A program made the position numbers and the translations under genes. Below are positions 38,491-54,317 of a stretch of 64,000 nt of DNA, piece by piece. The stretch spans positions 1,760,001-1,824,000 of the forward strand of contig CP182352.1 in the NCBI GenBank assembly GCA_048571215.1. Direction: 5' to 3'. Positions within the stretch are counted from its first letter, which is position 1. Every line of letters begins with the position of its first letter. The stretch comes from Halarcobacter sp. (lineage in GTDB: Bacteria > Campylobacterota > Campylobacteria > Campylobacterales > Arcobacteraceae). The notes beneath the pieces were generated by a model. That model worked only from the letters and a program-made list of their open reading frames with translations. It did not search any database and was not told the DNA's origin.

Positions 38491-39731
38491 TATTCTTCTC
38501 CATCTTCTTTATGTACTGTTCTTTTTCCTGCTACTGCTGAAGCTACTGCATGAACTCCAATACCAATTGTAGTTGCGGTTAATAATCCTAAACCAAACTC
38601 ATCAACAGTTTTTTCAACTCCACCTGTTGGTGCTTTGATATTCGCATCTGCCATTGGTCTTTCATAAGCATATTTATCCCAGAAATCTGGTTCAGAACAT
38701 CCAATACAACCTCGACCTACACCAATTGGCCAGTTTGCACCTTCGTTATATCTAATAATAGAACAGTTATTAAATGTCATAGGACCTTTACAACCCATTT
38801 TATATAAACAGAAGTTGTTTTTAGCACCTTCATCACCCCATTCTTCAACAAATTCACCTGCATCAAAATGAGCTCTTCTTTCACAGTTATCATGAATTCT
38901 ATAACCAAAAGCAAATTTTGGTCTTAATAATGAATCAAGCTCAGGAATTTGACCTGTTAATATAAATTGTAAAACTACACCAACCATATTAGCTGGATTT
39001 GCAGGACAGGCAGGGATATTAATAACAGGTTTACCTTTTACTAAATCCATAACACCAACTGCACCTGTAGGGTTTGGAGCTGCTGCTGGAACACCACCAA
39101 AAGTAGCACATGCACCAACTGCTATAACAGCTGCTGCATCAGAAGATAATCTCATTAGGTGTTCTTGGAAAGTTTCACCACTTGCACCAATTGTTCCATA
39201 TTGACCATTCATTCCTGTTGGAATTGAACCCTCAACAAATAGTAAATATTTACCTTTGAAATGCTCTACTGCATCTTCTAATTGAGCATCAGCTTGATGA
39301 CCAGAAGCTGCCATAAGAGTTTCATGGAACTCTAATGATAATACATCAAAAAGTAAATCATCAACTGTAGGAGCTGAACTTCTAAGTAATGCTTCTGAGT
39401 TACCAGCACAGTCTTGTAACTCAATCCAGATTACTGGAACTCTATTCATAAGTTCCGTAGCTTCAGCCACCAATGGAGTAAACATAGGAGGTAACATCAA
39501 TGTAGCAGTTGTAGCACTTGCCCATTTCATGAAATCTCTTCTGTTTACACCTTCACTCTCAATAACATCAATCATATCAATGTCTTTAAGTGCTGGTTGT
39601 TTTCTTAATGCCTCTAATCTACCTTTTGCTTTATTAAAAAGCGAATTATAATAAGCATCACCTTTATTCGTTTCAACTCTTGCAGAATTCTGGGTAAAAA
39701 CTTTTTTTACCATGTCTTGAGAATCAGCCAT
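38490..39731 (-). CDS. Group 1 [NiFe]-hydrogenase small subunit (second copy, Tat-exported)
   Basis: NRRDFMK, DCAGN, ACPA, CLYKMGCKGP; start MADSQ at 39731 preferred because of the AAGGGG RBS and an operator overlapping the longer start. Confidence 0.93.
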   Translation of the reverse strand: MADSQDMVKKVFTQNSARVETNKGDAYYNSLFNKAKGRLEALRKQPALKDIDMIDVIESEGVNRRDFMKWASATTATLMLPPMFTPLVAEATELMNRVPVIWIELQDCAGNSEALLRSSAPTVDDLLFDVLSLEFHETLMAASGHQADAQLEDAVEHFKGKYLLFVEGSIPTGMNGQYGTIGASGETFQEHLMRLSSDAAAVIAVGACATFGGVPAAAPNPTGAVGVMDLVKGKPVINIPACPANPANMVGVVLQFILTGQIPELDSLLRPKFAFGYRIHDNCERRAHFDAGEFVEEWGDEGAKNNFCLYKMGCKGPMTFNNCSIIRYNEGANWPIGVGRGCIGCSEPDFWDKYAYERPMADANIKAPTGGVEKTVDEFGLGLLTATTIGIGVHAVASAVAGKRTVHKEDGEE

Positions 39732-39751
39732 AAACTTCCCCTTTAGTTTTT

Positions 39752-39878
39752 TAAATGAATATTCATTTATCATCAGTATAAAGTTAGCTATTTTAAACTT
39801 AATATTATCTTAGAAAAAATACCCAAAATAGGAGCTTTAGTAGCAATAAAATAGCATGGCTAAAATGAACATTCATTT
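39752..39878. promoter_or_regulatory. Two palindromic operators upstream of the second hydrogenase operon
   Basis: TAAATGAATATTCATTTA (39752-39769, perfect) and AAATGAACATTCATTT (39863-39878). Confidence 0.7.
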
Positions 39879-39982
39879 ATATAAGCTTTAGTAACCACTT
39901 AGTACTAAAAATACATAAGTAATTTAATATTTAAAAAAAAATTGATTTTTTATTAAAATGTAACTTTTTAACTCAAATTATA

Positions 39983-41341
39983 TTAATGTGTAGTACATAC
40001 AGAACATACATCAAAACTTCTTAATATGATTTTTGCTTTTTCTATAGAATCAGTACCTACAATAGCCTTTTGGGTAGTACCTAAAGTATTATTATCACCT
40101 GGACCTAGGTTCCATACAGTGGGAGTTATGACATTGTACTCTTCTATTTTTCCATTTCTAATAGTAGCCTCATGAAATAATGAACCTCTACAAGCTTCAA
40201 CTACACTTAATGCTGATGAGTGTTCTAAATCATCCAATTTTATCTGTGGTTTTATATAAGATTCTTCATTTATATCTATTTTGGAGATAAGCTCTTTTGT
40301 ACTATATAAAAGGTGTGCTAGTTCATCCATTCTAGCTAATACTCTTGTAAATAGTGAATCTTCATATATGCTGTGTACATCTTTTAAAAGTTTTCTATTT
40401 GAAATAAGTGCTCTTGATAAGGGACCTGTTTCATAAAATAGATTATCATACTTAACAGTTTTTGCCCAACCATAAGCTTTTGGGTTTTCTTCATCTTTAT
40501 CTAAACTATAAGCAAAACTATCATCTTCATATATCTTTTTTAAATCTATTTTATGGCTAACTCTTTTATTTAATCTTCCTTTTTCAAAAAGAGCTGATTC
40601 ACCTAAACTAAGATGTCTATCGTAACTTTTTCCAATATTTTCAAAATCATTTTCAAAAGATATATCTATAAACTCTTTTAGATGTCCTCCAATTTTTGAT
40701 AACTCATAGGTTTTAGATAAGTCAAGATACTTTTCAAACTCCATATTTATTAAACTTTTTTCAAAAAACCTTATGCTTGAATCTAAATAGTTTTTCATTG
40801 TAGCTATATCCATAAGTGTTGGATCACTTACTACCCCTCCAGGTATCATATATGAAGTGTGTGGCCATTGACCACCTATAATCGCTAAAGCTTTTATTGT
40901 TTCACTTGCACACCCAAGTGCTTCTAACCAGTTTTTCCCTTTTAATGGTGTATATTCATTGAATTTTTTAGACGAAAGCTTTATTATATCAGGCATAATA
41001 AACATATAAAACCATTTTATATGAGAATCGATAATTTCAATATTTAAACCTATTTCCCTTAAAAGTTTTGCCTTTTGTGTCACTTGTAAATCAACGCCAG
41101 CGTTTTTATATAGATTTTCTAATAAATTAACAGTTGCAAGAAGATGTGCTTGTCCACAAATTCCACAAATTCTTGGGGTATAAACCAAGGCATCCAAAAT
41201 AGGTTTATTTTTTAAAATATATTCAAATCCTCTAAAGTTTAAAAACTCTATTCGTGCATCACTAATTTTTTCATTTTCCCAAGAACAAACAAGTTTTGCT
41301 TCACCTTCTATTCTTTCTACTAAATCTATTGTTTTCATCAT
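39983..41341 (-). CDS. Cytoplasmic group 2-type [NiFe]-hydrogenase large subunit
   Basis: ERIEGEA, PRICGICGQAH, ends FDVCSVCTTH with no C-terminal extension. Confidence 0.9.
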   Translation of the reverse strand: MMKTIDLVERIEGEAKLVCSWENEKISDARIEFLNFRGFEYILKNKPILDALVYTPRICGICGQAHLLATVNLLENLYKNAGVDLQVTQKAKLLREIGLNIEIIDSHIKWFYMFIMPDIIKLSSKKFNEYTPLKGKNWLEALGCASETIKALAIIGGQWPHTSYMIPGGVVSDPTLMDIATMKNYLDSSIRFFEKSLINMEFEKYLDLSKTYELSKIGGHLKEFIDISFENDFENIGKSYDRHLSLGESALFEKGRLNKRVSHKIDLKKIYEDDSFAYSLDKDEENPKAYGWAKTVKYDNLFYETGPLSRALISNRKLLKDVHSIYEDSLFTRVLARMDELAHLLYSTKELISKIDINEESYIKPQIKLDDLEHSSALSVVEACRGSLFHEATIRNGKIEEYNVITPTVWNLGPGDNNTLGTTQKAIVGTDSIEKAKIILRSFDVCSVCTTH

Positions 41342-41450
41342 AGCCTTTCAATGTGAAAAAAATTTTATCATATTTTTAATATGATTTAATAATAAGCGTT
41401 AGTTTTAGATATAAGAATTGAGTTAAAATAGTTTTTTTATACTTTTTAGT

Positions 41451-41580
41451 TTAATTTATCTTTTTTTTAAGTGTCCAAGCTGAATTGTATTGAGCAAATC
41501 CAATTTTGGGATAGTACTGTGTTACAACTAGTGATGAAAACAAAATCAGTTTGCATTTTGTACCAAGTAGTTCTTGTTTT
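41451..41580 (-). pseudogene. 3' remnant of a GNAT acetyltransferase
   Basis: Manual translation KQELLGTKCKLILFSSLVVTQYYPKIGFAQYNSAWTLKKKIN*, resembling the GNAT C-terminal YY.KIGF motif; no start codon. Confidence 0.45.
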
Positions 41581-41606
41581 TTAGGGTCAGATGCAATGCC
41601 TATGAG

Positions 41607-41888
41607 CTAATCATGAGCTTGTTGTCTGTGTTTAAAATCAACAACAGCTACAATAAGCTTATTACCCTCAATAAGATAAAAAAGTCTATAATTTCCAATT
41701 CTATATCTATAATAGCCTTCAAGATTATCTTTTAACTTTTTAATATTTGTTCCATAAAAAGGGTTTTCTCTAAGTTGAGGATAAACAAAGTTTTCAATTT
41801 TTGAATAAAGCTTTTTATCTATCTTTTTTTTAACTTTTTCAAAAGTTTTAGTTTCTGCAATTTGATACTTAGACAATTGTATAGTCAC
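41607..41888 (-). CDS. RelE/ParE-family toxin
   Basis: 93 aa, basic; IKKLK...YRYRIGNYRLFY. Confidence 0.9.
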   Translation of the reverse strand: MTIQLSKYQIAETKTFEKVKKKIDKKLYSKIENFVYPQLRENPFYGTNIKKLKDNLEGYYRYRIGNYRLFYLIEGNKLIVAVVDFKHRQQAHD

Positions 41889-42105
41889 CTTTTTTGAAAT
41901 CTTCTAGTCCATCCATAAGGTTTTTTACAAGCTCTTTATCATTCATAATTTCAGCCATTTCATCATTTTCTACAAATTGTGAAGATGTCAAGTATTGCAT
42001 TGTTGCAAACTCTATGAAATTTGAAAGATTTCTTTTTTGACCTTCAGCTGCAAGTTTTATCATATCGTAAACTGAATCATCTACTCTCATAGTTACTGTT
42101 TTCAT
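41869..42105 (-). CDS. RHH-type antitoxin
   Basis: MKTVTMRVDD ribbon-helix-helix N-terminus, acidic C-terminus, overlaps the toxin start. Confidence 0.85.
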   Translation of the reverse strand: MKTVTMRVDDSVYDMIKLAAEGQKRNLSNFIEFATMQYLTSSQFVENDEMAEIMNDKELVKNLMDGLEDFKKGDYTIV

Positions 42106-42176
42106 AATATATCCTTTGAATATTTATTAATACTATTGTATTCAATTTTATTCATTTTGTCAATTGAAGATGTTTC

Positions 42177-42247
42177 ATATAACGGTTGACTTGAGAAATA
42201 TTTGACCCGCACTTGGGTCAAATATTCGCTCCAGCATTTTGTTATCT
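42177..42247 (-). mobile_element. Integron attC site (71 bp)
   Basis: Minus strand AGATAAC...CTGGAG-CG-AATATTTGACCC-loop-GGGTCAAATATT-T-CTCAAG...GTTATAT; upstream gene stop lies in the TAAC. Confidence 0.85.
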
Positions 42248-42544
42248 AATAATATATTTGATGTGCGTACCAATTTTATTATTTTTAATAATATCTATAA
42301 ATTGTTTTATCGAAACTTCTTGTTCAGATTTTATATAATCTCCACTCCATATTGAAGTAAATGTTATTCCATTTTTTGAATAATTGAAAATTTTATTTAA
42401 TTCATTAGATATATGAGCCAACTTACTTTTTTCAAAAATCCAAAATTCATCATTCCAATCAGCTTCATCTGAAAGAAAATCATGTAAATTAATATGCATC
42501 TTTTCGTAAGTATCCATTAAAATAATTTCAGTAATTAAACTCAT
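42242..42544 (-). CDS. Hypothetical protein (gene cassette)
   Basis: 100-aa ORF with AAGGA RBS, bounded by attC sites. Confidence 0.7.
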   Translation of the reverse strand: MSLITEIILMDTYEKMHINLHDFLSDEADWNDEFWIFEKSKLAHISNELNKIFNYSKNGITFTSIWSGDYIKSEQEVSIKQFIDIIKNNKIGTHIKYIIR

Positions 42545-42560
42545 GGTAATTTTTCCTTTT

Positions 42561-42614
42561 AAATAACCTTTGACTTCAGTGACGCTCTGTGTTCACTGCG
42601 AGGATTTGTTATGA
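42561..42614 (-). mobile_element. Integron attC site (short, 54 bp)
   Basis: Minus strand TCATAAC-AAATC-CTCGCAGTG...CACTGAAG-TCAAAG-GTTATTT; the upstream ORF reads into it (HNKSSQ*). Confidence 0.75.
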
Positions 42615-43435
42615 GATTTTTTAATTTCATCCATTGTTTTAAATATTGATTTTACCCAATGGAAATCTGCATCCCACGAACCAGAGGGTGAAATAAGTAC
42701 ACCTAAAGGACCATCATGATTTAAATAATCTAAGACTTCAGAGTATTTTAAATCAATTATAATATTCCCACACATGCCAGGACTAACTTCATATTCACTA
42801 AATAGAAATTCTATGCTTTCATTTTTAATGAAAAACCTAGGTATAAAACTAGGTTCGTCAAATCTACTAAAAAAGTCACAATCATTTTTATTTTTAATAA
42901 TATTTTTCACTTCTTCAAGTGCATTACGTTTAGCATCAAAAACATCAAAAAAATCAAAATAATTGTTAGTCTTTGGGTTGATGTTAATTGACCATACCGA
43001 ATTATTTCCATTTAGTGCAGGATAATGGAAAGTATACTGAGTCATTTTTATAGATAATAAATTTGGGGAAATAATTCCTTTTTCATAATTAGAATTGTAA
43101 ATTATAAGGTCTTCAGTTATTGACTGAAGGACATTTTCTTTTATTTCATTATTAATATAATCCAAGAATTTATTGGAAAAAAATGGATAAATAATTTGAG
43201 GATAAAAGATATTATCTATTTCTCTATCATGTCCAGCATATTTTATGTCTTTAAATGTATAAGGATAATCTATTTTCTTTACTTCCAAGGAGTTGAAAAC
43301 ATAATCTTCAATAATAGTGCTTATCTTTAATGTTGCAAACGAAGTTAATGGAATTATTATTGCAAGAACTAAACCAATATAACTTGCTTTACTTGGTATA
43401 GACCATTTTGACCACTGCCGTATACTTGGAATCAT
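42593..43435 (-). CDS. DUF3298/RsiV-like membrane-anchored protein (gene cassette)
   Basis: N-terminal TM, YPQI, LLSIK, FLFSEYEVSP. Confidence 0.7.
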   Translation of the reverse strand: MIPSIRQWSKWSIPSKASYIGLVLAIIIPLTSFATLKISTIIEDYVFNSLEVKKIDYPYTFKDIKYAGHDREIDNIFYPQIIYPFFSNKFLDYINNEIKENVLQSITEDLIIYNSNYEKGIISPNLLSIKMTQYTFHYPALNGNNSVWSININPKTNNYFDFFDVFDAKRNALEEVKNIIKNKNDCDFFSRFDEPSFIPRFFIKNESIEFLFSEYEVSPGMCGNIIIDLKYSEVLDYLNHDGPLGVLISPSGSWDADFHWVKSIFKTMDEIKKSHNKSSQ

Positions 43436-43465
43436 GCGATTTACCTTTTATAATATTTCATATAC

Positions 43466-43495
43466 TCATAACTATTTATTCAACATACATTATAT
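43466..43495 (-). mobile_element. attI-like site 1
   Basis: Minus strand ...TTGAATAAATA-GTTATGA; core is the exact complement of R'' (TCATAAC) of the first cassette; TAACTATTTATT recurs at 47048 and 49964. Confidence 0.75.
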
Positions 43496-43763
43496 ATAAA
43501 ACACCCTAAAAATTAATAAATAACATACACAAAACATGTCGTATATTAAGACAACAAGAATTACCTAAAATAGAGAGTTCTTACGTATTTCAGTATAAAA
43601 AATATTGCAATATGTCATATTTTTTAAATTTATTTTAAGTTTTTAATATAGTTTTTATGTTCATTTATTATCGATATTTAGATGATAATAGTACATTGTG
43701 TATGTATATTATGTCAATATCGTGATAAACCTACATTATGTTAAATTTATTGAGAGGTATATT

Positions 43764-43805
43764 ATGGATAAAAAACTATTAGATATTATGAGAGATAAAT
43801 TCTAA
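43764..43805 (+). pseudogene. intI: Integron integrase N-terminal stub (MDKKLLDIMRDKF*)
   Basis: GAGAGG RBS; divergent from attI at the normal intI position; resembles the KLLD..RDKIR start of IntI proteins. Confidence 0.65.
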
Positions 43806-43810
43806 ATATT

Positions 43811-44706
43811 CACTTTTTTATTGAAAAAAGTAAAATAAAAACAACCCACAGATTTCGAAGGTGAAACTTCCCTCGCTTATTATTTCACTTTTCTGTTTTT
43901 CAAAACTCGCTCTTGTGCTTGCACTCTCTGTGAGAAAACGTAAGTTAGTTACGTTTTTTTACGCTCTAACAGTTGAAAAACTTTTCCGAAAAGCAAAATA
44001 AACACTCGGCTTCTCAAATGCGGGAAGGTGGGATAAGGACCTTTGCATTTTTTATACCATTTTATTTAAGCTGGTGTGATACTCAATTACTAAGAGAAAG
44101 TTCGAGGCTAGAGTATTTGTCCAGACTTTGTTGAAGCCGGAAGTTTTCTAATTATTTTCGGAGAAGACCGAGGACCGTTCAACTGGATAAAAGGTACTGA
44201 ATGTACCTTTTAGGAAAGCGTTCCGCAGGTCAGGAAATAATTATAAAACTGTAGGGAACTTTAGCTTCGACAACCGTCTGGTGGCTTTTGTTTTACTTTT
44301 ACCACTAAAAGTAAAGAAAGCGAAGAACTTGTTCTTCAAGACAATTGCATACAATAAAAACTATTTTCAAAATATTTGAGTGTGATTAAATTTTTACTGT
44401 ACGTCTTAACTTATTCCGACTTTCTTTTATGAAAAAGAAAGTAGCAAAGAAACCATCCTACAGGTTTCGAAAGTGAAACTTCCCTCGCTTATTACTTATC
44501 CTTTTTGAGTGACTAAAAACTTGCTCTTGTGCTTGCACTCTCTGTGAGAAAACGTGAGTTAGTCACGTTTTTTTACGCTTCAAACAGTTTAGTCACTTGT
44601 TTTCAAAAGAGATAAATAAACACTCGGCTTCTCAAATGCGGGAAGATGGGAAACTGACCTTTGCATTTTTTAATACCATTTTATTTTAGTTGGTGTAATA
44701 CTCAAC
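43811..44706. repeat. Structured non-coding repeat array 1 (A1-B1-A2)
   Basis: A1 43811-44087, B1 ~44096-44344, A2 44419-44706; GTGAAACTTCCCTCG recurs at 43861 and 44473. Confidence 0.9.
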
Positions 44707-44752
44707 AATTATTATAAAAGTGGAGATTCATCCTCTAGGGTGTTATTTCGAA

Positions 44753-45430
44753 TTATTCTATATTTAGTAATGGATTTTCTTTATTGTTTTTTGTTAAATT
44801 TTCTAAAAGAGCATTTTTCTCATCTTTTTTTTCTTGATAATCTTTTTGTAATTCTTTATAATTATTTAATGTTTCTTCAGTCTCTTCTCTATCTAAGTAT
44901 GAAGGTAAGTTTAGTAACATCTCTGTATATGTTTCTATTATATTTTCGAGAAATTTTTCTATATCTAAGTTTTTATAATCATCATTACTAAGAGATGTAT
45001 AATTCCCTTGGGCTTCATCCACCGATATAGTTGGCCAAGGAAACTGTCTATTTCCTGCTTCATATTCAATGTTATGTTTGATTTCATCAAAGTAAAGGCC
45101 TGGATACTCTTTTGTTTTCATCGTTTCAAATAAAGTTTTATTAAAATCATCATCATTGCTGAAATTTGTAACTTGCAATAATGCACTTCCAAAAGAAATT
45201 CTCTGATCTCCATTTTTTGATTCTTCTAAATAACTATTCTCTTCGAGCTTTTTTCTTAATTCTTTTGCTTCTTCATAACTTAAATCTTTTAATTCAGATT
45301 CATCTATAAATACATTTAAATTACCTTCTTTATTAATTATATTTTCAAATAGATCATTTACTTTGGCAGAGCTTTCTGATTTCAAGTCACTCTGATAATT
45401 CGGGGATACCTGTGTTGTATTAATTACCAT
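44753..45430 (-). CDS. Hypothetical protein (gene cassette), paralogue of 25501-26253
   Basis: 225-aa ORF, AAGGAG RBS directly after the GTTATCC cassette start. Confidence 0.75.
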   Translation of the reverse strand: MVINTTQVSPNYQSDLKSESSAKVNDLFENIINKEGNLNVFIDESELKDLSYEEAKELRKKLEENSYLEESKNGDQRISFGSALLQVTNFSNDDDFNKTLFETMKTKEYPGLYFDEIKHNIEYEAGNRQFPWPTISVDEAQGNYTSLSNDDYKNLDIEKFLENIIETYTEMLLNLPSYLDREETEETLNNYKELQKDYQEKKDEKNALLENLTKNNKENPLLNIE

Positions 45431-45448
45431 TTTATTTACTCCTTATAT

Positions 45449-45583
45449 GGATAACGTTTGAACTTGAAAAACAAGGGTACAATAGCACTTGATTATTTCA
45501 ATTTTCATTTTAGCTTTTTTGTTCTAAAAAACTTAAATAAACCACTGTATACCCTTGTTTTTATTTCCAAAGTTTTATTAGAG
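45449..45583 (-). mobile_element. Integron attC site (135 bp) with mutated R'' box
   Basis: AAAAACAAGGGTA/TACCCTTGTTTTT 13-bp stem; R' GTTATCC; R'' reads CTCTAAT instead of CTCTAAC. Confidence 0.75.
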
Positions 45584-45588
45584 GTTCT

Positions 45589-46269
45589 TTAAAGTTTAAT
45601 TGCTTTTGTAATAGCAAAATTATACATTCTCCAATAACAAGCACTTTGTTGAAATCCAACTTCTTTTAACCAATCAAAATGATTTGATAAAATAATTGGA
45701 AAATCTTTTTCAATATGTTTTTCATACCAAAACTCTGGGTTTTCACCTTGCTCTTTCATAAACTGTTTCCAAAGAGAATATTGATGTTCTCTAACATCTT
45801 TATCTTCATCTATGATAATATCATTTGAGATATAAACTGCATTTTGATTTGCACTATTAAAAAGTTTTTGATAAAAAACTTTTCTCTCTTCCCAATTTAG
45901 ATGATGTAGTGTCATACCTGTTAAAATTATATCATATGATTTTCCAATTGAATCTATTTTATAATCCCCTTGAATTAATTCATAGTTATTTGTATATTTT
46001 GATATTTTTTGTTCGTAAGCATCTAGCATTTCAGTAGTAATATCAAATCCAGTGATATGTGAATTTGGAAGTTTCTTTAAAACAATTTCAGATAATACAC
46101 CATTACCACAACCTAAATCCAATATTCTATAGTTTTTATTTTTATCACTTGGTAATAAATCAGATATGATTTTATGTTGTTCCAAATATTGTGGAACCAA
46201 TCTAGTCATCAATGCTTCATAATCAGAAGCTTGTTTTGCGAAATGTTCTTGTACATTTATATCTTTCAT
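45589..46269 (-). CDS. Class I SAM-dependent methyltransferase (gene cassette)
   Basis: ILDLGCGNG, GFDITTEML, MTLHHL. Confidence 0.9.
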   Translation of the reverse strand: MKDINVQEHFAKQASDYEALMTRLVPQYLEQHKIISDLLPSDKNKNYRILDLGCGNGVLSEIVLKKLPNSHITGFDITTEMLDAYEQKISKYTNNYELIQGDYKIDSIGKSYDIILTGMTLHHLNWEERKVFYQKLFNSANQNAVYISNDIIIDEDKDVREHQYSLWKQFMKEQGENPEFWYEKHIEKDFPIILSNHFDWLKEVGFQQSACYWRMYNFAITKAIKL

Positions 46270-46275
46270 TTTATC

Positions 46276-46344
46276 CTCTAACGTTTAAAATGAGCCGATG
46301 AATTGCCTGTAGGGTAATTTATTAGCTCTCCTGATTTGTTATAT
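46276..46344 (-). mobile_element. Integron attC site (69 bp)
   Basis: Minus strand ATATAAC-AAATC-AGGAGAGC...GCTCATT-TTAAAC-GTTAGAG with an imperfect central stem. Confidence 0.8.
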
Positions 46345-46353
46345 TTATCATGT

Positions 46354-47028
46354 CTAATAGACCTCCATATATATAACTTTTAATTTTTGTATCAACCCTT
46401 TTTTGTTAAATTTAATCTCAATTTTACCATTGGCATTATAGTAGTAATATTTACAGTTAATAGGCTCCTTATTACGTATATCTTGCTGAAGCATTATTTT
46501 TAGTTGTTTATTTGGTAATTTCAATCTTTTTTCGTAAAGATATTCTTGTTTCGCATCTGTTGCTAATGTAGGGTTCTGTAAATATTTTGATATTTGTTGT
46601 CTATTCATTCCAACTGCTAGACCAGATTTTGTACTGATACCTTGATATAGTTTATCGGTTTCTATGCAATGAGTTTGATTAATTTCTTGAGAATCGTCTG
46701 TAATTGAAAATCCATAGTAGTCCCAACCAGCATATTTATAATAAATTACTCCTACGCTTCTGTCTCTTGAAATATAACATGCTTCTTCATCACAAGAAGC
46801 ACATCCAGGTTTTCGCTTAAACGAATTGATCTCACCATAATATTTTTTTAAATCTTCAAAACTATGCTTGCCTATTGTTAGTCCAAGTAAAGTTTTATGT
46901 GATTCGTCCATTGTCATGCCAGAGACTTTGTTATCAACTTCAAGAACAGAAGGTGACAACTGACACAACTCATCATTTGCATAAACATTGACAAATATCA
47001 GTAAGCTCAATGTTAATAAAAGTCTCAT
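46354..47028 (-). CDS. Hypothetical exported protein (gene cassette)
   Basis: Signal peptide ending VYA, several cysteines, GGAG RBS. Confidence 0.75.
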   Translation of the reverse strand: MRLLLTLSLLIFVNVYANDELCQLSPSVLEVDNKVSGMTMDESHKTLLGLTIGKHSFEDLKKYYGEINSFKRKPGCASCDEEACYISRDRSVGVIYYKYAGWDYYGFSITDDSQEINQTHCIETDKLYQGISTKSGLAVGMNRQQISKYLQNPTLATDAKQEYLYEKRLKLPNKQLKIMLQQDIRNKEPINCKYYYYNANGKIEIKFNKKGLIQKLKVIYMEVY

Positions 47029-47044
47029 TATCTAGTCTCCATTA

Positions 47045-47075
47045 ATATAACTATTTATTGAATATACATTATATA
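47045..47075 (-). mobile_element. attI-like site 2
   Basis: Minus strand ...TTCAATAAATA-GTTATAT; core is the exact complement of R'' (ATATAAC) at 46338-46344. Confidence 0.75.
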
Positions 47076-47208
47076 AATAAAGTACTTAAATACACTAATT
47101 TATTATATATTTGCAAAGAAAGGTTGTTTTATGCATGTTTATAGAAAAGATATTACATAATGTCAAAATCTAATTTTAAAGTACATTTTTTATAATTTAG
47201 AAATAGTT

Positions 47209-47250
47209 GTAGATAAAAAACTATTTGATATTATCTGAAATAAATTTTAA
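47209..47250 (+). pseudogene. intI: Second, more decayed intI stub
   Basis: GTAGATAAAAAACTATTTGATATTATCTGAAATAAATTTTAA aligns without gaps to 43764-43805; start lost, internal TGA. Confidence 0.55.
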
Positions 47251-47255
47251 ATATT

Positions 47256-48183
47256 CACTTTTTTATTAAAAAAAGTAAAATAAAAATAACCCGCGGGTTT
47301 CGAAGGTGAAACTACCCTCGCTTATTATTTATTGTTTCTGTTTTGTAAAACTCACATAAAAATATGCTCCTAGCATATTTGTTCTGTTCAAACAGTTACA
47401 AAACTATTTCGAAACAATAAATAAACACTCGGCTTCTCAAATGCAGGAAAGTGGGAAACTGACCTTTACATTTTTTTAGTACCATTTTTTTTGAATTGGT
47501 GTAATACTCAATTTATACAAAGAAAGTTTGTGGCTAGTGTATTTAGTCCAGACTTTGTTGAAGCCGGAAGTTTTCTAATTATTTTCGGAGAAGACCGAGG
47601 ACCGTTCAACTGGATAAAAGGTACTGAATGTACCTTTTAGGAAGGCGTTCCGCAGGTCAGAAGATAATTAGAAAACTGTAGGGGACTTTAGCTTCAACAA
47701 CGTGTCTGGTTGCTTTTTGCCATACTTTTTACAATTAAAAAGTATGAAAGCGGAGAGCTTTGCTCTACAAGACAACTGCATACAATAAAAACTATTATCA
47801 AAATATTTGAGTGTAAATAAACTTTTGCTGTACCTCTTGGCTTTCTCAACTTTCTTTTGTAAAAAAGAAAGTAGCAAAGAAATTATCCCGCAGGTTTCGA
47901 AGGTGAAACTTCCCTCATTTATTATTTATTGTTTCTGTTTTGTAAAACTCACATAAAAATATGCTCCTAGCATATTTGTTCTGTTCAAACAGTTACAAAA
48001 CTTTTCCGAAACAATAAATAAACACTCGGCTTCTCAAATGCGGGAAGGTGGGATAAGGACCTTTGCATTTTTTAGTACCATTTTATTTGTATTGGTGAGA
48101 TACTCAATATATATTTTGAAAGTTCAAGGCTAGAGCATTTCAGTCCAGACTTTGTTGAAGCCGGAAGTTTTCTAATTATTTTC
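47256..48183. repeat. Structured non-coding repeat array 2 (A3-B2-A4-partial B3)
   Basis: A3 47256-47511, B2 ~47522-47775, A4 47849-48107, B3 48118-48183 truncated; B core near-identical to B1. Confidence 0.9.
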
Positions 48184-48232
48184 CATTTATCTAAACACTC
48201 ACTTATTTACTTCTGTATTTTGTTATAGGATA

Positions 48233-48688
48233 CTATACTAAAAGCTCAAGAAATAGAGTATTTAATTGATTCTTATCTTTTTTGTTTAATTTTGAGAAAA
48301 ATAAATTATCAATATCTTCTACAATTTTTACAGACTTTATTGCTAATTCTATTCCACTATGTGTTAATGTTATCGTTTTAGCTCTAGTATCTATTTCATT
48401 TTCACTTCTTAATATAAAACCATTTTTTTCTAAAATTTTTAAACTTTTGGATACTGTCATTTTATCCAGTTTAGTATGTTCAATTATTGTTGTTTGAGTT
48501 GTAATGATTTCTTGTTCTTTAAACCAAAGCAAAGAAGCCAAGATAACAAATCCAGAGTGATTTAAATTAACTCCATCCAATGCAGTTTTTATTTCTCTTT
48601 GCCAAAGTGTTGTCACTTGCCATAATAAAAAACCAGAACTTTGTTCTGCTTTTTTAACTTGAAAATTACTTTCTTTTTTCATTTTCAA
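48233..48688 (-). CDS. MarR-family transcriptional regulator
   Basis: SSGFLLWQVT.LWQR, DKMTVSK.LK.LE..G.I.R, DTRAK. Confidence 0.9.
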   Translation of the reverse strand: MKMKKESNFQVKKAEQSSGFLLWQVTTLWQREIKTALDGVNLNHSGFVILASLLWFKEQEIITTQTTIIEHTKLDKMTVSKSLKILEKNGFILRSENEIDTRAKTITLTHSGIELAIKSVKIVEDIDNLFFSKLNKKDKNQLNTLFLELLV

Positions 48689-49097
48689 TTAACCGTATTA
48701 ATCTATCCATATCTTCACCTAACTTATCTGCAACTTCTTGAGCAACTATCTTTTTCCATAAAAAAGATAAAATTCCTTCTATTTTTATGCTTGCTTTAAT
48801 CTCAATTTTACCATTTTTTTCTGTAATTTCATGAATACCGTACATTTTGGCTAATGGGAACTTTGTTAAATCTGTAAAACTTTTATCTTTTTCAATTTTA
48901 ATAAGTTGAATTTTAACTTTTTGTCCACCTTTTAATCCTAAAGTAAAAAAATTACCCTCTTTAAATTCTCCATCAAGTTTTGCGTAATCAATATCATCAT
49001 TAAAAGTATGCCAATTATTTATATCTGCCCATTTGTTAAAAATCTCCTCTTTTGAAATATTTTCAACTATTCTTGAATCTGTTCCAACTAATTGCAT
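48666..49097 (-). CDS. SRPBCC/polyketide cyclase-like protein
   Basis: IFNKWADINNWHTFNDDI, SFTDLTKFPLAKM. Confidence 0.8.
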   Translation of the reverse strand: MQLVGTDSRIVENISKEEIFNKWADINNWHTFNDDIDYAKLDGEFKEGNFFTLGLKGGQKVKIQLIKIEKDKSFTDLTKFPLAKMYGIHEITEKNGKIEIKASIKIEGILSFLWKKIVAQEVADKLGEDMDRLIRLIENEKRK

Positions 49098-49268
49098 CTA
49101 TTCTCCTTTTAGTAAAAATATATATAATATGCAAGTTTACTATATTGAATCTAAAAAATTGCTTTTATTTTATAAGTCATTTAATCTTTAGGCACACAAT
49201 AAAAAAGCCTCCGCACTACTCAAAAGTATTTAGTCCTATACGAATTTTTTTAATAGTTGATTATGTGT

Positions 49269-49544
49269 TTAGCCAAGGATTTCATAGTGACGCTCAACAT
49301 TAGCTGTTAGTTTACCCCAATGAGATTCTTTAACTCTTTTTTGATGATATTCAAAAGCAACTTTATTCGAAAATTCCTCATAAACGTCAAATCGAAGAGG
49401 GTTTTCTGGATTTTGAGTGACCCTAAATGTAATACAACCTGACTCTTCACAAGTGATACGTTTATGGTTTACCAATTCACTTTTTATTAATTCAAGCTGT
49501 GATTTAGGAACCAAAATAAAACCTTTTAATGTTACTTTAGACAT
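49269..49544 (-). CDS. Putative quinol/antibiotic biosynthesis monooxygenase (ABM)
   Basis: EESGCITFRV, RFDVYEEF, AFEYHQ.R. Confidence 0.85.
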   Translation of the reverse strand: MSKVTLKGFILVPKSQLELIKSELVNHKRITCEESGCITFRVTQNPENPLRFDVYEEFSNKVAFEYHQKRVKESHWGKLTANVERHYEILG

Positions 49545-49626
49545 AAATATCCTTATTATAAATTAGACCTACTACACCAAACAATTTGGAACACAATTTG
49601 GAATTGTTTCGAGTGATTAACGTTTC

Positions 49627-49944
49627 TTAAATGCCGTAGTCACGTTCTACTTTCGATATACGAGTTTTGAATGATGAATACCATTTTTCATGACCAAGCC
49701 TTTGGGCTTCTTGGTGCTCTGCATTTGCTTTCCATTGCATTATAGACTCAAGGTCAGACCAATATGAAACAGTAATTCCAACATCTTCTCTTGCAGACTC
49801 TACACCTAAAAAACCTGATTGCTTTGAAGCTAATTCAATCATTCGGTTCGCCATTTGTCCATAACCATTATCACCTTCAGTACGCTGAGATGTGAAAATC
49901 ACCGCGTAATAAGGTGGTTTGGGTGTGTTAGCGATAAGAGACAT
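49627..49944 (-). CDS. Antibiotic biosynthesis monooxygenase family protein
   Basis: TPKPPYYAVIFTS, GFLGVESAR, ITVSYW, EHQEAQ.LG...WY. Confidence 0.9.
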   Translation of the reverse strand: MSLIANTPKPPYYAVIFTSQRTEGDNGYGQMANRMIELASKQSGFLGVESAREDVGITVSYWSDLESIMQWKANAEHQEAQRLGHEKWYSSFKTRISKVERDYGI

Positions 49945-49960
49945 TTTTAATCCTTTTTAA

Positions 49961-49980
49961 AGTTAACTATTTATTATTCA
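49961..49980 (-). mobile_element. attI-like site 3
   Basis: Minus strand AATAAATA-GTTAACT immediately upstream of the RBS of the ABM gene. Confidence 0.55.
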
Positions 49981-49995
49981 TCCATTTTGAGTACA

Positions 49996-50092
49996 TAAAA
50001 ACTTGCTCTTGTGCTTGTAGACAAAAAAGTTAGAAAGCATACCCACGTTCAGTGGGTGTAAAAAAGCGAAGAACATTAGTTCTTAAAGACAA
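49996..50092. repeat. Eroded fragments of the A/B structured repeat
   Basis: TAAAAACTTGCTCTTGTGCTTG matches A2; AAAGCGAAGAAC..GTTCTT.AAGACAA matches the end of B1. Confidence 0.7.
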
Positions 50093-50102
50093 AATGTATA
50101 CC

Positions 50103-50999
50103 TCAATCAATCAACTTCCTATGAAGTCTATCTATTTTAAAAGTTTTAGCAATACCTGTCAGTGATAGATATGCTCTTTTTGTTATACCTAAGGGAACTT
50201 CAGCGGGGATTCCTATGTTTTTCTTAGTTTCAAGCATATTTTCCCTTGGAAAATCAAACTCAGTACACCCAATACATGGCATACCAGCTCTAGTTTTTGT
50301 ATTTACATCATTCCATAAAACTTTATTACAATTTGAGTGGGTCATAGGTCCACGACATCCTTGTTCATAAAAAAGACAGCCCTCTTTTAATCCAAAGCTT
50401 TTTGCTTCTACCTTCCATTCAAAGTACTCATTTCTTGTACAACCATGGTGGGCCAAACCATAATATAATTCAACTGGTCTTCCATATTCATCGAGAGTTA
50501 TCTTTCCATACTCTTTTAAGCTAAATAGAGTTTGAAAAATCCATTCTGGATGGACTGGGCAACCTGTAAGGTTTATTATTGGATGATTTAATCCATACAT
50601 ATTATCTATCTCTAAAGATTTTTCAAGCCCATCTATGTCACTATTGAAAGTAAATCTACTGTGAACTCCACCATATGAAGCACACGAACCAACGGCTATA
50701 ATATATTTTGATTTTTTTACAAGTTTATTAAACTGTATATATGGAGATTGATTTGATATTTTAAAAAAGTTTTCATTTGAACTTATTGCACCCTCGACAA
50801 GTAAAAAGTCAATTTCAACTTCACTATTTAAAATATCATCTAAAATAATCCCTTCAGTTAAGGAAGGGTGATATATAAGATCAAAACTATCTAAAAATAG
50901 TTTCATCCTATTTTGATTTGCACTTAAAAAAGAGTGGGTATTTCCATTACAAGTTATAGCTTGAAACCATAAAAGCTTTGGTTTTCCACTAGTTGTCAT
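50103..50999 (-). CDS. Cytoplasmic group 2-type [NiFe]-hydrogenase small subunit
   Basis: No Tat signal; LLWFQAITCNGN, GSCASYGG, GCPVHP, GCTRNEYF, GCRGP, CIGC. Confidence 0.9.
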   Translation of the reverse strand: MTTSGKPKLLWFQAITCNGNTHSFLSANQNRMKLFLDSFDLIYHPSLTEGIILDDILNSEVEIDFLLVEGAISSNENFFKISNQSPYIQFNKLVKKSKYIIAVGSCASYGGVHSRFTFNSDIDGLEKSLEIDNMYGLNHPIINLTGCPVHPEWIFQTLFSLKEYGKITLDEYGRPVELYYGLAHHGCTRNEYFEWKVEAKSFGLKEGCLFYEQGCRGPMTHSNCNKVLWNDVNTKTRAGMPCIGCTEFDFPRENMLETKKNIGIPAEVPLGITKRAYLSLTGIAKTFKIDRLHRKLID

Positions 51000-51579
51000 A
51001 CTTTAATGCTCTATAAATGTTTTCAGCAACTTGATCTGAATACTCCAATAAATCTTTTTCCAAAACCTTTTCACCACTTAAAAAAGCAAATCCACCAAGT
51101 GCACCCATCAACATACCAAAGGCAGGGAAAAACTCTTGTTGCCTAAACTCTTTATTAGCTGCACCCTCATCAAGTAAAATCATAACCTCTGTTACAAATT
51201 CACTTACACATAAAAATCCTTCACAGCCTTGATTAAAAACCTCTCTATTTGATAGGTAAACTCTTAAAAAATACTCAATAACTTCAGGAGATTTTTTTAC
51301 ATTTTTCAAATATACTTCTGTAAAAACAAATATTTTCTCTTTTGAGGAGATATCCATTTGATTAATTTCTCTTAATTCTCTTGCTAAAATATTTGTAGAG
51401 TATTTTATAGCATATTTGGCTAACTCTTCTTTGGACTTAAAATAGTTGTACATATTACCAACACTCATACTCATAGCTTTTGCAATATCAGGAATAGTAG
51501 TGTTGTAAAAACCTTTTGTAGAAAAAAGTTTTAAAGCTTTTTCAATAATATTATTTTTTTTCTCTTCTTTTGCGGACAA
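50989..51579 (-). CDS. TetR/AcrR-family regulator
   Basis: ALKLFSTKGFYNTTIPDIAKAMSMSVGNMYNYFKSKEEL; overlaps the hydrogenase small subunit start. Confidence 0.92.
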   Translation of the reverse strand: MSAKEEKKNNIIEKALKLFSTKGFYNTTIPDIAKAMSMSVGNMYNYFKSKEELAKYAIKYSTNILARELREINQMDISSKEKIFVFTEVYLKNVKKSPEVIEYFLRVYLSNREVFNQGCEGFLCVSEFVTEVMILLDEGAANKEFRQQEFFPAFGMLMGALGGFAFLSGEKVLEKDLLEYSDQVAENIYRALKYDN

Positions 51580-51635
51580 GGTATGCCTTTTTAATTTTTA
51601 TATTTTTTAATTATATAACTTAATAAGTTAATAGT

Positions 51636-51651
51636 AAATGAATACTTATAT
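51636..51651. promoter_or_regulatory. Degenerate copy of the hydrogenase operator upstream of tetR
   Basis: AAATGAATACTTATAT. Confidence 0.45.
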
Positions 51652-51689
51652 TTAAAAGAATTATTATAAAAGATTATTATAAAAAGTAT

Positions 51690-51725
51690 AAAAAAAGCCC
51701 AAGCAAAAAATGCTTGGGCTTTTTT
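51690..51725 (-). terminator. Rho-independent terminator after acnB
   Basis: AAAAAAGCCCAAGCA-AAAAA-TGCTTGGGCTTTTTT. Confidence 0.9.
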
Positions 51726-51740
51726 CTATTCTAGTATCTA

Positions 51741-54317
51741 TTAAGAGTGAACTAAACTTGTTAATTCTTCTGGTGATACTTTGTGGAAATTTAAGTATTT
51801 ATAAATATCATCTCTTTTTTCTGGAGTGATTTTTTTAGGTACCATTTCTAAGTATTCTTCTTTTGTTGGAAGTCTTCCTAAAAGTGCAGATAGTGCTGCA
51901 ACTTCTGCAGATCCTAAATAAACTTTTGAATCTTTACCAAGTCTGTTATCAAAGTTTCTTGTAGATGTACTAAATACAACTGCACCTTGACCAACATTTG
52001 CTTGGTTACCCATACATAAAGAACAACCTGGGATCTCCATTCTAGCACCAGCTGCTCCAAAGATTGAGTAGTAACCCTCTTCGTTTAATTGTTTTTCATC
52101 CATTTTTGTTGGTGGTGCAATCCATAATTTAGTTGGTACTGGACCTTCACCTTTAAGTACTTCACCTAAAGCTCTAAATAATCCAATATTTGTCATACAA
52201 GAACCAACAAATACTTCATCAATTTTTTCAGTTGGTCTGTTTGGATCAGCTAAAATATTTGATAATGTATCAACATCATCTGGATCGTTAGGACAAGCTA
52301 ATAATGGCTCAGTGATTTCATTTAAGTTGATTTCAATAGTTGCTAAGTACTCTGCATCTGCATCTGGTTGTAATAACTCAGGATTAGCAATCCATTCTTT
52401 CATTTTATCAGCTCTTCTTTGTAAAGTTCTAGCGTCTTCATAACCCTCTTCAATCATTTTTTCAATTAAAGCGATATTTGAAGATAAGTACTCAATAATT
52501 GGTTCTTTATCTAATTGAACAGAACAAGCTGCTGCTGATCTTTCTGCTGCTGCATCAGATAATTCAAATGCTTGCTCAACTTTAAGTTGTGGAAGACCTG
52601 AAATTTCAATTACATTACCTGCGAAAATATTCTTTTTGTTTTTCTTAGGTACTGTTAATAATCCATCTTTAATTGCTTGGTAAGGGATAGCATTAACTAA
52701 ATCTCTTAAAGTTATACCTGGTTGTAATTCACCAGTAAATTTTACATGAACTGATTCAGGCATAGTTAAAGGCATCATACCAGTAACACCTGCAAACGCT
52801 ACAAGACCAGAACCAGCTGGGAATGAGATACCAATTGGGAATCTTGTATGTGAATCTCCACCAGTACCTACAGTATCTGGTAAACATAATCTATTTAACC
52901 AAGAGTGAATAACACCATCACCTGGTCTTAATGTAACACCACTTCTTGAAGTAATAAACTCTGGTAGTGTATGTTGTAAGTTAATATCTGCTGGTTTTGG
53001 ATAAGCAGCAGTGTGACAGAATGATTGCATAACCATATCAGCACCAAAAGATAGTGCAGCAAGCTCTTTAATCTCATCTCTTGTCATTGGTCCTGTAGTA
53101 TCTTGTGAACCTACAGTTGTACAAACTGGTTCTACATACATACCAGGTTTAACACCTTCCATTCCACAAGCACGTCCTACCATTTTTTGTGCTTGAGTAA
53201 ATCCATTTGTACTTGCAGCTGGTTGAGATGCAGTAATAAAAGCATCAGATGCTTCTAAACCTAAAGCTTCTCTTGCTTTTGCAGTAAGACCTTTACCAAT
53301 GATTAATGGGATTCTTCCCCCTGCTCTCATCTCATCTGTTAATGTATTTGGAGCTAATTTGAATTCAGATACAACTTTTCCATCTTTTTCAATTACACCA
53401 TCAAAAGGTTTAAGAGTAATAACATCACCAGTTTCTAACTCATCAACTGGAGCTTGGATTGGTAAACAACCTGAATCTTCTGCTGTATTGAAGAAAATAG
53501 GAGCAATAATAGAACCAATAACAACCCCACCAGTTCTTTTATTTGGAACACCTGGGATATCTCTACCCATGTGCCATTGAACAGAGTTAATACCTGATTT
53601 TCTTGATGAACCAGTACCAACAACATCACCAACATATGCTAAAGGATAACCTTTTTCTTTTAATGAAGCCATTGTTTCAAGTGGATTTTCCATTCTTGAT
53701 TGTAACATTGCTGTTGCATGTAATGGAATATCAGCTCTTGTAAATGCTACAGTTGCAGGAGATAAATCATCTGTATTTGTTTCACCAGGAATTTTATATA
53801 CTGTTAAAGTAATCTCTTTTTCTAATGCTGGTTTATTTGTAAACCATTCAGCATTTGCCCATGATTCAATAACTTCTTTTGCTTTTGCATTACCTGCATC
53901 TGCTAACTCTTTTACATCATTGAATGAATCATAAACTAAAATTGTATCTTTTAATTGTTTTGCAGCAGAATCTGCTACTTCATCAATTTTTAATGCATCT
54001 ACTAGTGGAGTTACATTGAATCCACCCATCATTGTTCCTAAAATTTCAATTGCTTCAAGCTTTGAAATAACTGAACATGCAACATTTCCTTGTACTATAT
54101 CATTTAAGAATGCAGCTTTTACATAAGCAGCATCATCAACACCTGGGTTGATTTTATTTTTAAATAATTCTAATGCATAATCTGCGTCTTCTACAGAGTC
54201 TGCTTTTAATAACTCTACTAATTCAGCTGTTTGCTCAGCTGTTAATGCTAATGGTGGTAAACCACCTTCGTTTAATCTTTCTTCTGTATGTGCTTTATAA
54301 GTAGCTAATAAACTCAT
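51741..54317 (-). CDS. acnB: Aconitate hydratase B
   Basis: [61 protein letters not shown] favours the second Met. Confidence 0.97.

Follow-up and report, generated by a model that had tools for sequence, protein, structure and literature searches.

Integrase-less cassette arrays headed by attI homologues in a Halarcobacter genome: candidate docking sites for a distant integron integrase

Integron biology assumes a single attI attachment site per integrase, and cassette clusters that lack an integrase are treated as debris or as the products of insertion at secondary sites, partly because the attI of most integrons is unknown and cannot be searched for. What should be made of an integrase-less cluster that appears to carry attI sites of its own? 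This question is raised by 64,000 nucleotides from a Halarcobacter sp. of the Arcobacteraceae (contig CP182352.1, positions 1,760,001 to 1,824,000, the whole of the stretch analysed and called the window here), in which a block of 8.7 kb (41342-50102) is flanked by the small-subunit and large-subunit genes of a NiFe hydrogenase and is filled with rows of gene cassettes. The reading that we favour, with a probability of roughly 0.6, is that the block is a cassette array with two full copies of an integron platform (attI, leader and intI stub) and a 12-base remnant, without an integrase, and that its docking sites are likely served in trans by the IntI encoded 905 kb away.

The heads of the gene rows are marked by the 12-mer TAACTATTTATT, of which exact copies have been found in the window at 43469, 47048 and 49964 only, all on the plus strand, each with the start codon of the leading gene of a minus-strand run 19-33 nt away. 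This agrees with what a first reading of the bare sequence (the sequence-only reading) had noticed, and all cassette genes of the block are indeed co-oriented on the minus strand, as are all sizeable open reading frames (ORFs) between 41607 and 49944. A mean of 0.13 exact copies is expected by chance, and none of 100 dinucleotide-preserving shuffles has reached three. With one mismatch allowed, four copies have been found against 4.93 expected, which is not above chance, and it is therefore the exact copies and their setting that give the motif its significance. Loci with intI from relatives have allowed its identification: 80 were fetched, of which 53 with enough upstream sequence were examined and 27 dropped. 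The exact 12-mer has been found 160-307 nt upstream of the start of an intact intI at 25 of these 53 loci and a near variant at 13 more (38/53 in all), and neither at the remaining 15. The attI identity proposed for the motif has thus been borne out next to intact integrase genes, and judged by these alignments the 12-mer is the crossover core of attI for the clade of the resident integrase.

This resident enzyme is the only integron integrase in the genome, which consists of one contig of 3.61 Mb (C1). It is encoded at C1:895245-896189, ~905 kb from the block, scores 398 bits with the IntI profile TIGR02249 (cut-off 265), is full length and free of stops, and aligns with VchIntIA (2a3v) over residues 1-317 (E 3e-79), the alignment spanning the integron-specific insert as well as RHSYATHLL, LGH and IYTHV, conserved motifs of the catalytic region. 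A working IntI is thus probably present in the genome, as had been supposed. In the window no TIGR02249 match has been obtained at E ≤ 0.001, so that no intI stands beside the arrays, and a profile search of the genome has returned no 3′ remnant of intI anywhere. The array of the true integron comprises only ~4-5 cassettes, far fewer than the orphan arrays together; its first cassette (C1:896494-896680) is a G+C-rich unit of ~185 nt without a gene, which recurs two cassettes on at 898390-898575 (L001 and beyond).

What has been preserved at the three sites of the block differs considerably. Platform A (43469..43763, plus strand) consists of the attI core at 43469-43480 and a type A leader. Positions 43470-43799 share 87% identity over 330 nt with C1:896495-896166 and are collinear with the true integron, beginning at the margin of its first cassette, continuing across the divergent leader and ending 36 nt (12 codons) inside intI, where the homology stops. 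The resulting intI stub at 43764..43805 on the plus strand, MDKKLLDIMRDKF followed by a stop, matches the IntI N-terminus MGKKLLDIMKDKIRF and reads as 13 codons, ATG GAT AAA AAA CTA TTA GAT ATT ATG AGA GAT AAA TTC TAA. Platform A is also 82-88% identical to the attI-to-intI stretch beside intact intI at four further loci (L037, L026, L041, L025). Platform B (47048..47251, plus strand) comprises the core at 47048-47059, a shortened type B leader and a degenerate stub at ~47207-47250; its homologues, 80-83% identical, are the attI-to-intI stretches of Malaciobacter canalis (L042) and of two Arcobacter metagenome-assembled genomes (L034, L035), in comparison with which it has a gap in its interior and lacks the ATG of the stub. 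At site C (49964..49975, plus strand) only the exact core remains of a platform, with no leader homology; the 12-13 nt of core overlap by TTATT with the ~125 nt of repeat debris that follow. The expectation that each module would contain attI, leader and intI stub is therefore satisfied at 43469, reduced to a shortened leader and a degenerate stub at 47048 and disappointed at 49964. The identities further place A and B in different leader lineages, one close to the resident integron and one to other genera, so that they are not copies of each other and the local triplication or duplication of a platform that had been suggested is contradicted.

These sites belong to a larger set, since the genome contains one intact intI against at least 14 orphan attI copies. 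Among the 15 copies found by a regular expression, the true one included, similarity starts exactly at the crossover and the cassette side diverges immediately; the crossover is preceded by TAAC in 14 copies and by CAAC in one, with a different cassette beside each. Homology between platform copies stops at the AA/C (G/TT) crossover, the slash marking the point of exchange. Behind leader types A, B and C an identical stub-to-repeat junction leads into a structured repeat of ~600 nt, and the truncation seems to be of one origin because the same junction occurs in three leader types, yet the cassettes differ from copy to copy. The junction bears on an explanation that needs no enzyme in trans, according to which the platforms would be fossil integrons in which intI was destroyed or gave way to the repeat, whose cassettes were caught while intI was still in cis, and which have experienced no events since. 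Integrase loss has been proposed as one origin of integrase-less clusters (Cury et al. 2016, PMC4889954), and the leader types A, B and C do each resemble intact integrons of different species, as separate acquisitions would; a single junction behind all three is, however, hard to obtain by independent decay. Moreover, the core and the adjoining box are invariant in all copies while the stubs decay (with the reservation that the search pattern itself requires the core), and a 3′ part of intI, as fossils might have kept, is missing from the whole genome. We regard the fossil explanation as unlikely.

The distribution of such sites in the family has been surveyed in 60 genomes of relatives with a strict attI pattern (AACTWHTTATT N4-9 CATTATAT), intI being called at E ≤ 1e-60. 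The pattern has returned 13 sites in this genome and 54 sites in 24 of the 60 relatives, with 2 matches in the reversed control versus 67 in total. An intI has been called in 19/60 relatives, and more pattern sites than intI genes have been found in 20/60 (five with one intI, 15 with none), the pattern being insensitive in that 10 of the 19 intI-bearing relatives lack a match. One relative (G056) has four attI-pattern sites and no integron integrase, and in another (G026) intI is present in three copies of nearly full length, each interrupted in frame by one or two TAG or TGA stops.

That the block is an insertion can be seen from the hydrogenase locus of relatives. The large-subunit gene (39983..41341, minus strand; Pfam PF00374 9e-44, NCBIfam) is the downstream partner of the small-subunit gene (50103..50999, minus strand; PF14720, PF01058), and among the 12 relatives searched for the locus it is present, as an orthologue, in nine. 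There the two genes abut or overlap (G064, G067, G070), lie ~20 nt (G065) or ~120 nt (G061) apart, are separated by ~700 nt with one opposite-strand gene between them (G063, G066, G020), or stand 3.67 kb apart (G062). Since the genes abut or lie close in relatives, the 8.7-kb block was evidently inserted into a pair of genes that resembles an operon. A remnant of the native spacer has been retained before the large-subunit gene (41342..41512); it resembles the spacers of relatives, and its part 41342-41382 has 93% identity with the corresponding position in G062. The small subunit, as read, has an N-terminus without a twin-arginine signal, and presumably the enzyme is of the sensor type to which such small subunits belong. 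With the pair split by the array, the large subunit can now be expressed only by read-through or from the platform A promoter. In the same-genus genomes G063, G020 and G066 (loci L113, L114 and L115), the cassettes at the intergenic site are replaced by the opposite-strand gene of ~200 aa, which has a GDCEDF motif and which we take to encode a transglutaminase-like cysteine peptidase. The G+C content of the window is ~28%.

The closest relative, the related species G062, in which the large and the small subunit are 75% and 85% identical to those of the window and intI is located on another contig, provides the closest comparison. Its intergenic site contains an attC that is 89% identical to attC (d) of the block (see below), an attI with leader, one repeat unit, and three ORFs unrelated to the cassettes of the block. 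The repeat unit ends beside the stop codon of the small-subunit gene, as does the debris in the block, a collapsed repeat-unit remnant on the plus strand (49976..50102) that is orthologous to the full unit in G062, with 86% identity between 49971-50007 and L121:3288-3324 and with the same end next to the stop of the gene. The module with the core-only site in the block is thus orthologous to the G062 module, and from this orthology it follows that module C is old and that its cassettes have been turned over or added independently. The comparison of cassette content at this locus, which had been advised at the outset, has in this way yielded an orthologous module with entirely different cassettes, a difference that fossil integrons without later events would not easily account for.

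The cassettes themselves are bounded in part by recognisable attC sites, the consensus of which consists of inverted R''/R' core boxes (RYYYAAC ... GTTRRRY) around an imperfect palindrome. A covariance model, R1, has been built from 13 sites of ~70 nt of this genome, all located outside the window; its structure was derived by counting pairs between columns, the consensus obtained with RNAalifold from the attC alignment having been poor. When the whole window is searched with filters off, R1 has only three matches at E < 0.001, all on the minus (cassette) strand and all inside the block: attC (a) at 42177..42247 (55.8 bits, E 7e-9), attC (b) at 42561..42614 (32.9 bits, E 4e-4) and attC (d) at 46276..46344 (59.9 bits, E 1e-9; the one conserved at the orthologous locus in G062). 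A fourth, attC (c) at 45449..45585 on the minus strand, is supported by homology, as it can be aligned with g1712875 and with a pair of attC sites from the true array, which are likewise of the long class of ~130 nt; in its R'' box, the AAC of the homologue is changed to AAT. At 48184..48232 (minus strand), comparison with the attC alignment consensus has revealed an attC of which only the 5′ half is present, joined to a truncated repeat, with an R''-L'' of CTATAACAAAATACAG on the minus strand. Two further palindromes on the minus strand have been folded and are not scored by R1, an imperfect one after the toxin-antitoxin cassette that is attC-like by eye and degenerate (41513..41577), and a degenerate one after the first ABM gene (49555..49630). 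The claim of attC-like palindromes between the genes is thereby upheld for four sites, three by R1 and one by homology, and not for these two. Heuristic attC finders had been replaced by the covariance model, two stem-score versions having missed known sites and a fold-filtered pattern scan having returned 217 mostly spurious matches.

All genes between these sites are encoded on the minus strand. Behind attI A, the first cassette encodes a DUF3298-domain protein (42593..43435, PF11738) and is followed by a gene of 100 aa without a match in ORF and family scans (42242..42544) and by a cassette (41607..42105) with a RelE/ParE-family toxin (41607-41888; PF05016 1.6e-10, TIGR02385) and its small upstream partner (41869-42105). 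The first cassette behind attI B encodes a 224-aa protein with a signal-peptide-like N-terminus and no match in the family scans (46354..47028); it is followed by a class I S-adenosylmethionine methyltransferase cassette recognised by family scan (45589..46269) and by a 225-aa gene without family match (44753..45430), which abuts the repeat end without an attC of its own, a linkage also seen in a contig of run X5 (44565-45422). Behind the core-only attI, an ABM-domain (antibiotic biosynthesis monooxygenase-like) gene comes first (49627..49944, PF03992 6e-6), then another ABM-domain cassette (49269..49544, PF03992 5e-7) and an overlapping pair (48233..49097, family scans) of a 143-aa protein (48666-49097) and a MarR-family regulator (48233-48688). 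The methyltransferase has a second genomic copy at C1:1718999-1719688 with 96.4% identity, whose upstream homology ends at the TAAC crossover and whose downstream flank is a repeat end, not an attC. After this second copy (C1:1718908-1719693) only the last ~70 nt of the repeat follow, with a duplicated GGGGTGTTAT, and the locus adjoins another short repeat (TTTTAAGGTGGCAACTGACCC), which also occurs near 810127 and 2557863. In contigs of other studies, single cassettes break at attC sites (42237-42567 and 45566-46286); the former is a contig of 332 nt from run X8 that covers just this cassette with 2 differences.

The position that intI has in a complete integron is taken here by the structured repeat, which occurs with ~1.5 units per array between the stub and the next row of cassettes. 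Array 1 (43807..44752, plus strand) comprises a full unit (43807-44418), a partial one (44419-44721) and a conserved end with a terminator-like hairpin (44729-44742), and array 2 (47252..48183, plus strand) comprises a unit (47252-47848) and a truncated one (47849-48183). The repeat forms ~40 blocks in the genome and has been found in 36/60 sampled family genomes. Its folding is by far superior to that of shuffles on either strand (z -5.6 and -7.6), and the consensus folding energy leans to the plus strand (-77 vs -53 kcal/mol); a strand test by G-U versus A-C counts has let the consensus of each strand favour itself (168/14 vs 119/11). Arrays without a stub begin directly after a conserved TAAATATAT box, which has its homologue in the sequence immediately upstream of intI, and arrays end in a conserved hairpin and T-run that is terminator-like on the plus strand. 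From this arrangement we infer that the repeat would be an RNA gene in the position of intI, driven by the old intI promoter. Run X5 (RNA) has contributed few contigs of the region, with a depth of 2-8 and no strand information, and has given no evidence of transcription. An Rfam E-value scan of 38000-54000 has yielded nothing in the repeats at E ≤ 1 and only chance-level matches outside them, and a group II intron identity for the ~600-nt units was dropped for want of an Rfam match; likewise, the right end GGGGTG/TTAT was considered as an integron core site and rejected in favour of the terminator-like hairpin with its T-run.

Smaller parts of the repeat have been found on their own. An end motif of ~29 nt (AAAGTGGAGATTCATCCTC..GGGGTGTTA, window 44722-44752) stands alone at C1:384997, 388208, 548517, 809296, 810127, 2204758, 2557863 and 3396737, GGGGTGTTAY being repeated in tandem two or three times at some of these sites. 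Some repeat units additionally contain an insert of 27 nt (TCTTGTGCTTGCACTCTCTGTGAGAAA), which has 9 genomic copies and is 100% conserved in distant genera; it has been located at 43911-43937 and 44525-44551 of the window, at C1:717694 and 724670, and at L122 (G008). The truncated intI match in G008 has been checked for an inserted repeat and holds only this 27-nt piece, in the leader between attI and an intI with two stops.

Regarding the relation of the repeat to attI, the sequence-only reading had let the two spread together. The link is common and not obligatory: the repeat is absent at the orphan attI copies 1938564 and 1940120, and an attI-like motif is absent within ~1.5 kb at 4/5 of the repeat loci checked in relatives. 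Nevertheless, the abundance of the repeat in the genome and the family, the separation of modules by repeat blocks throughout, and the truncated or fused ends at 48183 and 49976-50102, which indicate recombination or deletion within repeats, could be taken to mean that the repeat itself is active, by homologous recombination or transposition, and stacks segments of attI and cassettes, with IntI playing no part in the module architecture. This is countered by the homology between platforms, which ends at the integron crossover and not inside the repeat, by the exceptions on either side of the attI-repeat link, and by the promoter-like start and terminator-like end, which are gene-like and not transposon-like, no transposase having been seen. 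Shuffling by the repeat alone is therefore considered improbable.

As the repeats are also the places where an assembly may fail, the order of the modules requires support of its own. Unitigs of four runs (two samples of one study, possibly the source) cover the unique junctions with 0 differences at 41144-43675, 44719-45611, 46278-47074, 47063-47298 and 48154-50384. Short-read unitigs break inside the repeat blocks, and it is the single-contig assembly, together with the parallel in G062, that supports the order of the modules. A mis-join across repeats could in principle have produced the tandem order, which the unitigs leave unverified at these breaks, but every unique junction is backed by them, the genome is a single 3.6-Mb contig, and the same kind of module is present at the same site of a related species, so that an artefact is very improbable. 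Most odd joints in the contigs are cross-mapping from other repeat copies, such as that of 44748 to 45582, which is the second methyltransferase locus. In run X1, one contig connects attC (d), at its R'' end, with attI core A (46342 to 43467), and contigs of X11 and X6 from other studies join attC (d) directly to attI core B (46341 or 46307 to 47048) without the 224-aa gene. These joints of attC (d) to the attI cores A and B are absent from the assembled genome and may represent attC-only cassettes at attI in co-occurring strains.

If the block has been served in trans, its history would be as follows. Cassettes would have been inserted or exchanged at the orphan sites after the loss of intI, which would imply that IntI acted from elsewhere. 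A conserved ACATTATAT stretch, present in all attI copies and in relatives, forms a TATAAT-like box on the cassette strand, and at 17-22 nt from the crossover this box may serve as the cassette promoter, while the former intI promoter would drive the structured repeat as a plus-strand RNA. The extra modules would most likely have entered the array as multi-cassette circles, and such circles could derive from attC × attC or attC × attI recombination, or from homologous recombination between repeat copies.

Several points weigh against service in trans and have kept our estimate from being higher. No recombination event has been observed in the data, which consist of contigs only and leave the odd joints described above. 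The repeat copies are at most ~92% alike, which means nothing recent, and the methyltransferase cassette is the only one with a second copy (96%), its attC not being shared. Decay is visible in the core-only platform C, in the mutated R'' of attC (c), in the halved attC at 48184-48232 and in the two palindromes that fail the model, and R1, which is not the model of IntegronFinder, has been derived from sites of this same genome. A sigma-70 promoter scan has found 49 matches against 49.4 expected, which is the level of chance. Finally, 15 relatives have attI-pattern sites and no intI at E ≤ 1e-60, so that sites can persist without the enzyme. The decay, the lack of near-identical copies and the relatives that keep sites without any intI would also be expected of fossil integrons.

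Beyond the block, a wider picture can be drawn of a distributed integron, in which one IntI serves at least 14 docking platforms. The platform (attI, the cassette promoter Pc and the intI promoter PintI) would then be a multi-copy, integrase-free module with the old intI promoter driving a large structured RNA, and modules would move as attI-bearing circles (attC × attI), which would make the platform itself cassette-like. We put this forward tentatively, as a possible but doubtful extension of the reading in trans.

How does the block relate to known systems? With at least two attC sites, co-oriented cassettes, no intI nearby and an IntI encoded elsewhere, it falls under the definition of an attC site cluster without an integrase (CALIN). 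CALINs are defined without attI, attI having been searched only as exact class 1-3 sequences and being unknown for most integrons, and intI pseudogenes have been found near only 15/279 CALINs (Cury et al. 2016, PMC4889954). The arrays of the block differ in being headed by attI homologues, a promoter leader and an intI stub, of which several stand in tandem and the genome has at least 14. With a complete chromosomal integron (intI, PintI, attI, Pc and array, as in Vibrio cholerae), the block shares the attI core, the divergent leader and attC-bounded cassettes; it differs in that intI is lacking in cis, a structured repeat occupies the intI position and the platform is multi-copy. The complex class 1 integron In104 of SGI1 also has more than one attI site in one locus, each with its own cassette (PMC7056807). 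It is a mobile class 1 integron whose two sites have arisen by partial duplication, and neither a genome-wide family of orphan sites nor an RNA-like repeat is part of it. The second attI copy of In104 reportedly carries a truncated intI1. In SALIN/attG, cassettes are placed away from the integron by IntI acting elsewhere in the genome, as has been considered here; attG is unrelated to attI in sequence and structure (Loot et al., bioRxiv 10.1101/2022.09.11.507474), whereas the receiving sites of the block are true attI homologues. A literature search covering main texts has turned up no published case of many attI sites for a single integrase.

The sequences compared here make the attI of an entire integrase clade recognisable. 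It is multi-copy and heads most of the cassettes of the genome, and its position at one orthologous locus is shared between species whose cassettes there differ. If IntI acts on the orphan sites, the capacity for capture and expression would be spread over many loci, each platform with its own promoter, arrays could split operons, as has happened to the hydrogenase pair, and CALIN counts in databases would underestimate the number of functional integron sites. Should the distributed integron be true, many CALINs in other bacteria may be live capture sites with an unrecognised attI.

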